Shown here: one piece after another, positions 32,277-47,806 of the stretch
How positions within the stretch are numbered: the stretch's first letter is position 1
Layout of the letters: each line of letters begins with the position of its first letter
Sequence record: NC_049817.1
Direction: 5' to 3' (one strand)
Length of the DNA stretch: 51,277 bases
Origin: Escherichia phage tonnikala
The notes under the pieces: model-generated
The model's database searches: none
Told to the model about the DNA's origin: nothing
What the model saw: only the letters and a program-made list of their open reading frames with translations
Position numbers and translations under genes: made by a program

Positions 32277-32299
32277 GGGGCGCTTATGCGCCCTTTGTC
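32277..32299 (+). terminator. terminator-like hairpin
   Basis: GGGGCGC-TTAT-GCGCCCC then TTTGTCA; near-identical to the hairpin at 47787. Confidence 0.4.
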
Positions 32300-32317
32300 A
32301 CATCTGGAGAAAACAAA

Positions 32318-32737
32318 ATGGTAGATGAATTTTACACAGACGCTGAAATCATGCAGCAAATCGTAAAGTTAGCGCCGCCAATGCAACAGGTCGATCCCGA
32401 TTTAATTGTGGCATGGATTGAGCTTGCTAAAGAGTTTGTTTGCAAAAAACGGTTTAAAAACTCATACCCTAAAGCGGTTGCGCTTTACACTCTTCACCTT
32501 ATGACCTTAGACGGGGCAATGAAACAGGAAGGTGAAAGCGTAGAAAGCTATTCCCGCCGCGTCGCCTCGTTCACTCTGACTGGTGAGTTTAGTCAGACGT
32601 TTGATCGAATCTCTTCCGATACAAGCGGAAAGCAGATCCGACAAACGCCGTGGGGCAAAATGTACGAAGTGTTAAACCGTAAGCACGGTGGCGGCTTTGG
32701 CCTTGTGACTGGATTGCGCCGGAGATGCTGCCGATGA
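32318..32737 (+). CDS. head-tail connector protein (gp6-like)
   Basis: 139 aa; position and size fit head-tail adaptor proteins. Confidence 0.45.
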
Positions 32738-33105
32738 ACTACAATGAGATTGCAAGAATGGCTACGGCTGGGATTAACTTTTTCAGCGACGCTAACGGTA
32801 TGTTTAAGTGCATCACGCAGCAGGGAGGGGTTGAGATTATCGGTGGAGAGGAAGTTACCAAGCCGGAGATTTCAGTGATGATAAAGGGGCTTGTTAGATC
32901 TCCGAGGACTAGAGAGGTTGACGGTGAAACAATCCGAGTAACCGACAAGTTGGGGATATTCACCAATGAAACTGAGATCAAAAATGGTTATCAGATTGAA
33001 ATTGATGGCGAACGTTATGTTGTCGTTGAAGCAAGACCAGTCAGGCAGACTAACATCACGGCGGCTTATCGTCCGATATTAAGGAGGATTGCTGTGCATG
33101 GCTGA
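32734..33105 (+). CDS. head-tail joining protein
   Basis: Start set at MNYNE overlapping previous stop (ATGA); small neck-module protein. Confidence 0.4.
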
Positions 33106-33541
33106 TAATTATAAGATCAGGGAATTTCACGGTGATATAAGCAGGTGGATTGATTCAGTAAGCAGCGGCCTTGTTGATTGCGTTGAAATGTTCGCGACAA
33201 ACGTCCACGAGGATCTTGTAAATCGCTCGCCAGTTGATGCGGGCCGATATAAAGCCAACTGGCAGATAACAGCAAACAAGCCGCCGCTATATGCGCTCAA
33301 CCAATACGATCGCGATGGTGGTAAAACCATTGCAGAAGGTAAGCGAGCAATATATGCAATCATGCGTGGCGGTGGCGCGGTGCGGTCAATCTATTTTTCA
33401 AACATGCTCATTTACGCCAACGCGCTTGAATACGGGCATTCAAAACAAGCGCCGTCCGGCGTACTTGGAATCGTGGCGGTAAAGCTGCGATCTTATATGG
33501 CTAAGGCAATAAAGGATTCGAGGGCAAAAAATGCACTATGA
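33098..33541 (+). CDS. HK97 gp10-like neck / tail-completion protein
   Basis: Motif RSPVDAGRYKANW resembles the conserved PVDTG segment of HK97 gp10 family; AAGGAGG RBS. Confidence 0.5.
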   Translation: MADNYKIREFHGDISRWIDSVSSGLVDCVEMFATNVHEDLVNRSPVDAGRYKANWQITANKPPLYALNQYDRDGGKTIAEGKRAIYAIMRGGGAVRSIYFSNMLIYANALEYGHSKQAPSGVLGIVAVKLRSYMAKAIKDSRAKNAL

Positions 33542-33932
33542 TTTAATGTTGGCGGCAAGAAAGGCGCTGGCGGCTGAATATGAATCACGATTTAAGATAG
33601 CCTATGAAAACGTTGATTTTGTGCCGCCTGGAGATGGTTCTATGTGGTTAAAATTTAACTACATGGAAGCAGACACGGATCGCATATCTCTTGATAGAAA
33701 ATGTGTTTCTTATATCGGTTTGGTTCAGGTTGGAATTGTCATTCCTCCTGGCGGTGGCACTGATAAAGCGCGTTTGCTGGCTAAAGAGATTGCGAGATTT
33801 TTCTATGATGGTAGAATGCTTGAAACTGGCTATATTAGCGAGGGGGCAAACGTCCACACGTTACTAAAAAGTGAAACAGGTTGGTTATTGCCGATCCGTT
33901 TCAGTGTTAGGCTTGATACAAAGGAGGAATAA
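33531..33932 (+). CDS. tail terminator protein
   Basis: 133 aa immediately upstream of major tail protein. Confidence 0.45.
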   Translation: MHYDLMLAARKALAAEYESRFKIAYENVDFVPPGDGSMWLKFNYMEADTDRISLDRKCVSYIGLVQVGIVIPPGGGTDKARLLAKEIARFFYDGRMLETGYISEGANVHTLLKSETGWLLPIRFSVRLDTKEE

Positions 33933-33934
33933 TC

Positions 33935-34597
33935 ATGCACTTGCCTAATGGTTCTCAAATTTTCATCGGCGTTAATATGGGTGAGCCAATTAGCGCGACT
34001 CAAATCAGCAATGCTGATAATCCTGTTTTTACAACCGAAAACACTCAAAGCATCCAAAAAGGCGCTTATGTTCTTATTGAAACATCTTCCTGGGGCAAAC
34101 TGGTTAGTCGTGTGTTGCGAGTAAAGGAAGTATCTGATAACGCAAGTGTAACTCTTGAAGGAGTAGATACAACCGATCAGAACGTGTTTCCGGCTGGTTC
34201 TAATACAGCAACCTTCCGAGAAGTAAAATCATGGGTAGAGATTCCTTGCGTACAGGATCTTGCGCAGGACGGAGGCGAGCAACAGTATTACACTTATCAG
34301 TGTTTGGCTGATGACCAGGAGCAGCAGTTACCGACATACAAGAGCGCAGTTTCTCTTACCTACACCTTCGCGCATGAATATGATAATCCGATTTATCCGA
34401 TCTTGCGCGAGGCTGAGGAATCCGGCGACGTAACCGCTTTGCGTATGTACGTTCCGAAAGCTAAAGAGATGCGTTGCTGGGCTGGCGTATTGTCCTTTAA
34501 TGACATTCCGCAAACCACTATGAACGAAATGGAAACTGTTTCCCTTTCCGTATCTCTGAAAGGTCGATTCACGTTCTTACCTTCTGACGTTAAGTAA
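33935..34597 (+). CDS. major tail protein
   Basis: 220 aa with strong AAAGGAGG RBS, directly upstream of the chaperone/frameshift pair and tape measure. Confidence 0.6.
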   Translation: MHLPNGSQIFIGVNMGEPISATQISNADNPVFTTENTQSIQKGAYVLIETSSWGKLVSRVLRVKEVSDNASVTLEGVDTTDQNVFPAGSNTATFREVKSWVEIPCVQDLAQDGGEQQYYTYQCLADDQEQQLPTYKSAVSLTYTFAHEYDNPIYPILREAEESGDVTALRMYVPKAKEMRCWAGVLSFNDIPQTTMNEMETVSLSVSLKGRFTFLPSDVK

Positions 34598-34602
34598 AAC
34601 AA

Positions 34603-45705: not shown

Positions 45706-45735
45706 GCACACACAAAGCAACAAGGAGCATCAAAG

Positions 45736-46791
45736 ATGAGTGATTTTAACGCCTACACTAGCGAAGAAATGAGCAATGAGCTTTATCATGATCCTAACGC
45801 GTGGACGGCTGAATACGTCAGCGGTTCCAGCTTGGCGGAGATTTACAGCACTTGCCCGGCGTACTGGAAGTACAAGCCTCGCCAGGAAACTAAGGCACTT
45901 GTTTTCGGTACGCAGTCGCATACCAATTTTGAAAGCAAGGAGTTATTCGAAAAAACATATCGCCGCGCACCGTCGCAGGATGATTTTAAAGATCTGATCA
46001 CAAGTCAAACGGCGTTAGCCTCAAAGCTGAAATCTTTTGGCCTGAAAGGTACAACGGGTAAGCAATACCCAGAATTGCTGGAAATGCTGTACAAGTGCGG
46101 TGAGGATCTCAATGTATGGTGGCTTATCGAAATGATGGCAGAATGCCAGGCCGCAGCGGACGGCGTGCAGTTAATCGACGCGAAAGATTATGATGCCTGT
46201 GTAGCGATGCGGCGCGTACTTGAGGCAATACCTGAGCATAATGCTTGCATGAATAGCCCAACCGCGCAGCGTGAAATGTCAATATTCGGGATCATCAATG
46301 GCGTAAAAGTTAAAGTGCGCCTTGATCACGTTGACGTAAACAAGGATGTAAAGGCCACAATCATTAACGGTTACGACGAAAAAGGCCGACCGATTTATGA
46401 AGAAGTCATCTATCCAGAAGCTGTGATTATCACTGACTATAAAACAACGGTTAGCGCAAATCCGGTTGACTTCCAGCGCCTGGCTTACAATCACGGCTAT
46501 TATCTCAAAATGGCTTTGCAGCATGATTTATTTAAAAAGGCGTATCCAGACGAGGAAAGGCCAGTAATTGTGAGATTGCTTGCTCAAGAGAAGAAAGAGC
46601 CTTACTTGCCGCTCGCATTCCGCATGAACATTGAGCAATTGAAGATCGGGCGTATCCAGTACATGAGCGTGATCAACAAGTTCAACGTTTGCCAACAGTT
46701 AGATGAATGGCCTTCGTATGCAAACGGGCAGCCAGAAATTGATCTTGATACTCCTGATTGGGTGCGCGCTCAATTCAGGCAGTATCTATGA
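45736..46791 (+). CDS. PD-(D/E)XK-family exonuclease (RecE/exonuclease VIII-like)
   Basis: 351 aa; D...E-x-K style core (VIITDYKTT); encoded just upstream of Erf and SSB. Confidence 0.5.
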   Translation: MSDFNAYTSEEMSNELYHDPNAWTAEYVSGSSLAEIYSTCPAYWKYKPRQETKALVFGTQSHTNFESKELFEKTYRRAPSQDDFKDLITSQTALASKLKSFGLKGTTGKQYPELLEMLYKCGEDLNVWWLIEMMAECQAAADGVQLIDAKDYDACVAMRRVLEAIPEHNACMNSPTAQREMSIFGIINGVKVKVRLDHVDVNKDVKATIINGYDEKGRPIYEEVIYPEAVIITDYKTTVSANPVDFQRLAYNHGYYLKMALQHDLFKKAYPDEERPVIVRLLAQEKKEPYLPLAFRMNIEQLKIGRIQYMSVINKFNVCQQLDEWPSYANGQPEIDLDTPDWVRAQFRQYL

Positions 46792-46866
46792 CAAACTAAA
46801 CAAATAGCTAAACTTTTATAATGGTTGGTGATATAATTCGCCAACCAGATAACGGGAGAATGAGAG

Positions 46867-47124
46867 ATGACAGATAAAGACAATGCCACATTATTGCATT
46901 TAGAGCGATTCATTGATCGAGTAACCATTGCAATGAAAGAATTTATTAAGCCGATGAACATTAAAGAGTCGGAAGAAATGAAGACTTACATCAAGGACGT
47001 GGTTGCATCCATTGACAACGTTATCCTTGTTGCAACGATGAGCAAGGGAAACAAAGAGCGCGAGAGATTGGTTGCTGAATCAACAGAAGAATTTATTAAA
47101 ATGCTTGAAAGCGAGAAGGAATAA
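46867..47124 (+). CDS. hypothetical protein
   Basis: 85 aa between exonuclease and Erf. Confidence 0.45.
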   Translation: MTDKDNATLLHLERFIDRVTIAMKEFIKPMNIKESEEMKTYIKDVVASIDNVILVATMSKGNKERERLVAESTEEFIKMLESEKE

Positions 47125-47127
47125 GAA

Positions 47128-47781
47128 ATGAAATTATCCGATCAGTTTGACAAAGTTTTGCCAGCATTGCACAAAGCGCGCAGCTTGTTTGTAAAGGTTA
47201 AAAAGGATCGCCAAAACAGCCATCTTAAAAACCGTTACGCTACGCTTGATTCAGTCCTAGATGCCATTACCCCAGCATTGATGGATAATGAGCTTATGAT
47301 TATGCAGGACGGCGAAAGAATTGATGTAAGCACGTTGCGAGTTGAAACCACCGTCATGCACGTTTCTGGCCAATGGGTGAAATTCTATTTTGATATTCCG
47401 ATCGTTAAAAACGACCCTCAAGGTGTAGGATCTGCTTTCACATACGGGCGTCGTTATTCTGCGGCTGCGGCCTTCGGGTTAAGCCAGGCTGACGATGACG
47501 CACAAATCGCAGTCAAAACAGTGAACGACTGGAAGCGCGATATTGAAAAATGCGAAAGCGTAGGAGAATTGCAAGAAGTCCTTAAAAACGCGTGGAAGTC
47601 AAGCGACGCGGCAAGCAAGCAAGTAATCCGCGATCACTATGAGAAGCGCAAGGCTGAAATTGAGATAGGCGGCGCGCGCGGATTTAATCCGGCAAAACCT
47701 AAAGAAAACCTAGCCAGCGACACCGTTGACACTCCAAATAGCGAGAAAGTAAAATCACAAAGTATCACTGACTTTGAATAA
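47128..47781 (+). CDS. erf: Erf-family single-strand annealing protein
   Basis: N-terminal region ([17 protein letters not shown]...) typical of Erf proteins; adjacent to exonuclease and SSB. Confidence 0.65.
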
Positions 47782-47786
47782 TAAAC

Positions 47787-47806
47787 GGGGCGCTTGCGCC
47801 CCTTTT
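47787..47806 (+). terminator. terminator-like hairpin
   Basis: GGGGCG-CTTG-CGCCCC then TTTTGTCA. Confidence 0.4.

Follow-up and report, generated by a model that had tools for sequence, protein, structure and literature searches.

The 51,277-nt sequence of Escherichia phage tonnikala (NC_049817.1; hereafter the window) carries three similar GC-rich hairpins, here called S1 (position 32277), S2 (34603) and S3 (47787), all on the plus strand. A sequence-only reading had taken them for one terminator reused at distant sites. The comparison with related phages indicates that they are very probably members of a set of about 17–20 intergenic GC-rich stem-loops which serve as punctuation in the operons of T1-like phages and work at the level of RNA, each being of ancient origin and tied to one gene junction and none being the copy of a moving element. 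The region 31000–36000 of the window is 96–98% identical to about 50 coliphage genomes (e.g., Poky, vB_EcoS-95, atuna, and tonijn), which are classified as Drexlerviridae, Tempevirinae, Warwickvirus; therefore, by this relationship, the window is the genome of a T1-like virulent siphophage of the genus Warwickvirus.

All three hairpins were found where the sequence-only reading had placed them, and only the 3′ arm of S1 had been miswritten with one C too many. S1 reads GGGGCGC-TTAT-GCGCCC-TTTGTCA (32277–32300), with three C at the end of the 3′ arm instead of four; the hairpin proper (32277–32294) consists of six G-C pairs plus a terminal seventh pair, G.U. S2 is GGGGCG-TTG-CGCCCC (34603–34617) followed by T6, and S3 is GGGGCG-CTTG-CGCCCC-TTTTGTCA (47787–47810), whose hairpin spans 47787–47802. 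The pattern GGGGCG-N2-6-CGCCCC occurs in the window only at S2 and S3 (expected number 0.00). With stems of 6–8 bp and loops of 3–4 nt, the three structures fall within the limits set for a terminator stem-loop (at least 5 bp, loop of 3–8 nt), and the corresponding intergenic regions fold with energies of −13.4 to −14.4 kcal/mol (−14.4 for S1; z from −2.5 to −3.1). In each case the stem starts 4–6 nt past the stop codon, or past the second TAA of a TAATAA, and is co-oriented with the genes.

The three hairpins occupy different settings. S1 lies between a small DUF7444 gene (32005–32271, ending in the double stop TAATAA at 32269–32274), located 3′ of the major capsid gene, and a DUF4054 head-completion gene. 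It is followed by the tail TTTGTCACATCT (32294–32305), whose U-run is short and interrupted, and by the Shine–Dalgarno (SD) sequence, spacer, and ATG of the DUF4054 gene, GGAGAAAACAAAATG (32306–32320). S2 separates the gene of the major tail (tube) protein from that of the tail assembly chaperone; here, a canonical intrinsic terminator, AAGGGGCG/TTG/CGCCCCTT plus the T6 run, spans 34601–34623. Finally, S3 occupies the junction between erf (47128–47781, double stop TAATAA at 47779–47784) and ssb. Its tail TTTTGTCATA (47803–47812), in which the T-run is limited to Warwickvirus and a few relatives, leads to the SD, spacer, and ATG of ssb (47813–47827), which are again GGAGAAAACAAAATG.

To follow each junction across relatives, we used 69 related loci from IMG/VR, fetched via the central tail fibre protein and designated L below, together with seven GenBank Warwickvirus records, from which the three junctions were extracted by tblastn with the flanking proteins. 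In every one of about ten clades a hairpin is present a few nucleotides 3′ of the same stop codon, with flanking proteins that are 35–90% identical across clades (down to 35–60% in the distant ones). No empty site was found at S1, S2, or S3 in any relative examined. The structures themselves are quite variable: folding of the individual sequences shows that stem pairs, stem lengths, and loops differ among the 39 (S1), 29 (S2), and 39 (S3) distinct variants, and in L021 the polarity of the arms is even reversed at one site. Of 40 distinct orthologous S3 variants, 39 keep the hairpin, with UUCG, GNRA, or CUUG loops. Orthology of this kind across clades applies to eight terminator sites in the late and recombination regions. 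Since hairpins with varied stems and loops recur at the same offset in all clades, we consider that they are ancient and position-specific and that their structure is under selection, as judged from the sequences compared; the selection for a specific structure that had been suggested earlier is thus borne out, site by site. For the same reason, being orthologous and fixed in position in about ten diverged Drexlerviridae clades, none of them is likely to be recently duplicated or mobile. A covariation analysis of the S3 orthologues (MAFFT and RNAalifold) returned 0 predicted pairs, because stems of unequal length were misaligned. A search of the whole window against Rfam 15 gave no match at the gathering score, nor anything at relaxed thresholds, other than sub-threshold, terminator-driven matches near the sites.

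The resemblance between the three hairpins was then quantified by Smith-Waterman local alignment of each cassette against the whole genome, with 30 dinucleotide-shuffled genomes as control. S1 and S3 align with a score of 26.5, and S2 and S3 with 21.5 (19.0 with S3 as the query). The best matches in the shuffled genomes average 11.3–11.7 (standard deviation 0.8–1.0, maximum 14), and all other sites of the genome, including about 17 other strong terminator hairpins, score 14 or less. S1 and S2 score only about 10, a stem-level likeness, so that S2 is a relative of S3 and not of S1. The similarity is real, exceeds a generic GC stem, and is larger for S1 and S3 than first noted. Indeed, both share TAATAA, a 2-nt spacer, the hairpin, TTTGTCA, and then the identical 15-mer GGAGAAAACAAAATG from SD to ATG, which occurs exactly twice in the window. 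The remaining differences are two indels (loop TTAT vs. TT; tail CATCT vs. TA) and one C/T. A BLAST self-comparison fragments this match and ranks it too low. Thus, the alignment of the flanks does not confine the similarity of S1 and S3 to the kind of GC stem that arises independently, and does so only in part for S2 and S3. Conservation between copies past the stem is restricted to these two pairs and to Warwickvirus, extending to the sister clade in the case of S2 and S3.

The near-identity of S1 and S3 is a property of one genus. The within-genome S1–S3 score is 19.5–27 in all Warwickvirus genomes and 5–11.5 in every other clade, and the S1–S3 pair of the window is the top outlier (z = 4.8) among about 300 within-genome comparisons of non-orthologous terminators. 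A general within-genome homogenisation of terminators was not significant (permutation p = 0.13; 8 sites, 28 site pairs × 11 clades), while clade-level tests gave p = 0.054 for S1–S3 and p = 0.012 for S2–S3. An earlier value of p = 0.0002 for homogenisation was discarded, having been inflated by the many near-identical Warwickvirus genomes. As for the ancestral states, TTTGTCAYATCTGGAG is ancestral at S1 and common to several clades, the S1 ribosome-binding site (RBS) of sister lineages is GGAGGAAACACAATG or similar, and S3 in sister lineages carries TTTCTTACAGGAGAATAAATAATG and related forms. These strings are already close, so that few changes per site reach the shared ones. We conclude that the S1–S3 near-identity probably reflects a single genus-specific event on top of already similar stems, caused either by convergence on a common design or by short-patch recombination. 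Nothing points to a special shared function behind it.

Of the specific explanations, short-patch ectopic recombination is the one that fares best, and we regard it as possible rather than probable. According to this explanation, gene conversion, which the Erf/exonuclease of the phage could catalyse, homogenised pre-existing similar S1 and S3 in the ancestor of Warwickvirus, and an earlier S2/S3 event may have occurred. The gap between 26.5 and the scores of all other sites, the inclusion of an identical 15-nt RBS, the outlying z value, and the restriction to one genus are all in line with it; moreover, S3 of Warwickvirus and its sister clade has the S2-like GGGGCG(C)TTGCGCCCCTTT, unlike S3 elsewhere. 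Mosaic junctions within the S1 cassette of BEK12A and L053 indicate that recombination uses these short conserved strings. In L102 (BEK12A; 8650–8710) a sister-clade hairpin is joined to the tail, RBS, and downstream gene of Warwickvirus, and L053 (1652–1710) carries a whole sister-clade S1 cassette beside a DUF4054 gene of the Warwickvirus type. On the other hand, S1 and S3 still differ by the indels and the C/T described above, so that any conversion must be old or patchy. In addition, ancestral S1 (GGAGGAAAC.AAATG with TTTGTCAY) and S3 (GGAGAA.AAA..ATG with TTT.CA) were so close that few substitutions suffice, and the homogenisation test argues against a general process.

That generic GC-rich terminator stems arose independently and match by pure coincidence seems unlikely to us. 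It would account for the stem-only likeness of S1 and S2 and for the recurrence of GGGGCG-type stems at several sites in several clades, and a hairpin followed by CCCTTTGTCATATCTGGAG has arisen independently in Photobacterium and Mesorhizobium; however, S1–S3 and S2–S3 score above every shuffle and every other terminator of the genome, and their flanks match too.

An equally doubtful proposal is that the S1/S3 cassette (hairpin, UUUGUCA, and GGAGAAAACAAAAUG) constitutes a genus-specific cis-regulatory module, kept identical at loci 15.5 kb apart via ectopic gene conversion or via selection for a common RNA-binding factor. If this were true, ssb would be co-regulated post-transcriptionally with the head-completion genes, its transcript starting from a promoter inside erf and carrying S3 in the leader, and S3 would be an SSB autoregulatory operator or an attenuator and not a plain terminator. 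The narrower version, in which a trans-acting factor (the phage SSB or another RNA-binding protein) recognises hairpin, UUUGUCA, and RBS and so keeps S1 and S3 alike, or in which S3 alone mediates an autoregulation of the T4 gene 32 type, is in our opinion distinctly improbable. Both cassettes are near-invariant in the genus (10 genomes have the same S3), S3 lies in a predicted ssb leader 3′ of a conserved promoter, and a stable tetraloop hairpin followed by an unstructured A/U-rich RBS would suit such a factor. Nevertheless, outside the genus both hairpins are kept but the tail and RBS strings common to them are not, and neither a candidate factor nor an Rfam match was found.

We give hardly any credence to the idea of a small duplicated or mobile element, REP/MITE-like (repetitive extragenic palindrome, miniature inverted-repeat transposable element) or a terminator cassette, inserted at several sites: the similarity does reach past the stem, and one unrelated viral contig matches hairpin plus tail at 29 of 31 nt, but instead of the many non-orthologous copies and the presence/absence polymorphism that characterise such elements we found two or three copies, at orthologous sites occupied in all relatives, without target duplications or terminal repeats. 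The duplication of a small element proposed earlier is therefore not upheld, also because the motif is not dispersed beyond chance. In IMG/VR, GGGCGC-loop-GCGCCC-TTTGTCA occurs in 26 stretches, half of them S1 orthologues and the others unrelated terminators. The 19-mer GCCCTTTGTCAYATCTGGA is present there in 12 S1 orthologues and one unrelated contig (about one such match being expected), and in 596 Gb of bacterial genomes it gave 8 matches vs. about 9 expected by chance. The Photobacterium and Mesorhizobium look-alikes belong to these bacterial chance matches; since they are hairpins, such strings recur readily at terminators.

The unrelated contig, L080 (IMGVR_UViG_3300010357_001474), carries GGGCGCTTCGGCGCCCTTTGTCACATCTGGA at 5643–5673 and encodes a DNA ligase; none of its local open reading frames matches the window. 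The match looked at first like a horizontal transfer, but we judge it compatible with chance: a single match is what the size of the database predicts, and independent look-alikes exist elsewhere.

Several points nonetheless weigh against the view that each hairpin has simply stayed at its own junction and acts there as a punctuation signal. The S1–S3 match, comprising stem, TTTGTCA, and 15-mer, is far above the shuffles and every other cassette pair; pure coincidence is uncomfortable, and a real copying event or a shared constraint may lie behind it. In L066, S2 and S3 share lineage-specific CAGAGGGGCGCTTG-like strings, in different pairing registers, and in the T1 clade S1 and S3 share TAATCATCA. 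Termination and read-through, like the promoters, are predictions from sequence. Furthermore, a promoter about 25 nt upstream of a U4-tailed hairpin, as S3 is in this genus, would be odd if S3 terminated efficiently. As a separate observation, an S2-type hairpin GGGGC(A)TTGCGCCCCTTTT is also found 3′ of ssb in L002 and in L012 (TLS). Together, the shared strings of L066, of the T1 clade, and of L002/TLS hint at an occasional exchange between sites.

The promoter in question, TTGACA-N18-TAAAAT (47726–47755, plus strand), lies within the 3′ end of erf, matches the sigma70 consensus at 11 of 12 positions, and has a predicted start at about 47762, which leaves about 25 nt to S3. About 20 divergent relatives in the Drexlerviridae carry it at an unchanged offset. 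The synonymous positions of its hexamers are near-invariant (37–38 of 39 distinct sequences, the exceptions L021 and L052 not aligning there), and neighbouring third-codon positions of erf vary freely. All 13 clade representatives use the Val codons GTT (supplying TT) and GTA (TA) together with xAA (AA); in the rest of erf these are used in 40%, 26%, and about 53% of cases, respectively. The hexamers, whose 18-nt spacing falls within the 16–18 nt of sigma70 promoters, are thus conserved beyond coding constraint, as for a putative promoter of this type. No conserved promoter is evident in the 3′ ends of the genes preceding S1 and S2, and GTANAATC, considered as a general promoter motif, shows a weak enrichment (10 matches vs. 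5.8 expected).

The intergenic hairpins of the late operon follow two designs. In Class I (S2 and the hairpins at 38409 and 40543) the loop and the 3′ arm contain TTGCGC or TTGTGC, followed after 17 nt (16–18 in a few 38409 cases) by TAnAAT. This arrangement is found in 10/12, 8/14, and 12/14 clade representatives, respectively, and is absent from S1 and S3; in the window the units span 34609–34637 (TTGCGC, 17 nt, TAAAAT, overlapping S2), 38425–38452, and 40551–40579. Its conservation suggests that Class I may combine a terminator with a promoter inside it for restarting transcription, in agreement with the "transcripton" picture cited for T1. Class II (31959, S1, 35330, and S3) has no promoter; past the hairpin come a short run of T, frequently ATATCT, then GGAG(G), a spacer rich in A, and the ATG. 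According to the folding the RBS is unpaired at S1 and S3.

The U-tracts differ as well. S2 has a full one (T6) in all clades. At S1 it is full in many clades and only UUUG in Warwickvirus; TTTGTCAC counts 4 T of 8 with the 6-bp stem and 3 with the 7-pair stem, and the terminator scan did not flag the S1 of the window. S3 in the window has TTTTGT (5 T of 8). Among its orthologous variants at least 5 T in the 8 nt past the stem are present in 6/39 and at most 2 T in 21/39, and most relatives have A-rich tails. An approximate d'Aubenton-Carafa formula gives scores of −18.9 for S1 (7-pair stem), 13.5 for S2, and 15.5 for S3; with the 6-bp stem, a hand re-estimate by the same approximate formula brings S1 to about +9, which is borderline.

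From these features a different role can be proposed for each hairpin. S2 would be a strong intrinsic terminator 3′ of the highly expressed tail-tube gene, and transcription would start anew from the promoter-like −35 (TTGCGC) of its loop and a −10 lying 17 nt further on. S1 would act as a weak, leaky terminator or as a hairpin protecting the 3′ end, immediately followed by an unpaired RBS. S3 is probably mainly the conserved stem-loop of the erf-ssb junction: since the predicted start at about 47762 puts it in the leader of an ssb transcript started inside erf, it is best read as a leader or intercistronic stem-loop. Its short U-run, gained only in Warwickvirus and a few relatives (the sister lineage L002/L003/L006/L042, and L034), would give it the look, or part of the action, of a terminator and may attenuate transcription. 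Therefore, to speak of one terminator being reused is misleading, as the three functional contexts differ and S3 is not terminator-like in most relatives. The erf-ssb hairpin, which a conserved predicted promoter within erf precedes, should not be taken as a terminator throughout the family.

As a kind, and essentially as individuals, the three features are already known, being in the public annotation of near-identical phages. The GenBank record of phage Sip lists S1 as Terminator02, S2 as Terminator03-05, and S3 as Terminator012, and the terminator table of TLS contains the orthologues of S1 (T36B) and S2 (T42); the TLS text counts 21 intergenic terminators (PMC11447400), and T1-like genomes are reported with 18–21 rho-independent terminators. 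The Sip and TLS predictions agree with ours in orthologous position, GC stem-loop plus T-run, and co-orientation with the genes. However, TLS lists nothing at the erf-ssb junction, where its hairpin has no U-tract, and the near-identity of S1 and S3, RBS included, is specific to Warwickvirus. This near-identity and the context of S3 appear to be undescribed in the papers on TLS and T1-like phages (PMC11447400, PMC4070988), and the promoter inside erf is not among the listed TLS promoters. A literature search found no transcript map of a Drexlerviridae phage.

Our use of these observations is mainly for annotators of T1-like genomes, and they carry little weight for biology at large, dealing with routine predicted terminators that are already publicly annotated; the two late-operon designs could also guide transcript mapping and phage engineering. 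Stem-loops that stabilise transcripts between cistrons are well known in phage intergenic regions, such as the C(UUCG)G hairpins of T4, as is the REP-stabilised malE mRNA. The S3 orthologues resemble them in that short G-C stems with UUCG, GNRA, or CUUG loops stand between two cistrons and in most cases lack a U-tract; unlike them, S3 has a predicted internal promoter on its upstream side, and a protection of mRNA 3′ ends by S3 would be hypothetical. With REP/BIME (bacterial interspersed mosaic element) and MITE sequences our hairpins share the character of GC-rich intergenic palindromes with similarity between copies, but they number 2–3 at fixed orthologous sites, without dispersal or insertion polymorphism. 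In T4, the leader of the SSB gene (gene 32) contains a translational operator in which a pseudoknot precedes an unstructured A/U-rich RBS. S3 likewise places a structured element before an unstructured A/U-rich RBS in an SSB leader; however, it is a simple hairpin with no pseudoknot and a short leader, SSB binding to it is putative, and the parallel leaves S1 unexplained.

The dominant repeat family of the genome is a different one, AATAGCACTTTTTGTTAAAAC, with about 20 sites, which matches the 21-nt direct repeat aaATAGCACnnnTTGnTAAAA of TLS/T1 (PMC11447400). It shares the same intergenic regions, one copy lying 45 nt downstream of S2, but constitutes a separate family whose members are not hairpins. 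Copies in plus orientation are located, e.g., at 3571, 4642, 16360, 16823, 18039, 19271, and 22067, and reverse copies, e.g., at 10929, 12965, 13692, 14996, 30912, 34664, and 45289; those of the late region run opposite to the genes. The copy near S2 (34664–34682) adjoins the RBS of the tail assembly chaperone gene (ATG at 34697).

Two annotation points concern the neighbourhood of S1 and S3. In several RefSeq records of close relatives (NC_048132 gp70 and gp88; window 32255–32317 and 47774–47824) the annotated starts of the DUF4054 gene and ssb are placed further upstream, so that the two genes extend across the hairpins S1 and S3, respectively, and overlap the gene before. We favour the ATG codons at 32318 (DUF4054) and 47825 (ssb) as the likely starts because of the conserved noncoding hairpins, the variable intergenic lengths, and the strong RBSs. 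Finally, AAAGGGGGCGTAGCCCCCTTT at 44044–44064, between the convergent tail fibre (J-like) gene and the minus-strand genes, was flagged on both strands by the terminator scan; its approximate score, from the same formula, is −27.5 on the plus strand vs. +18.1 on the minus strand, which supports a terminator on the minus strand only.

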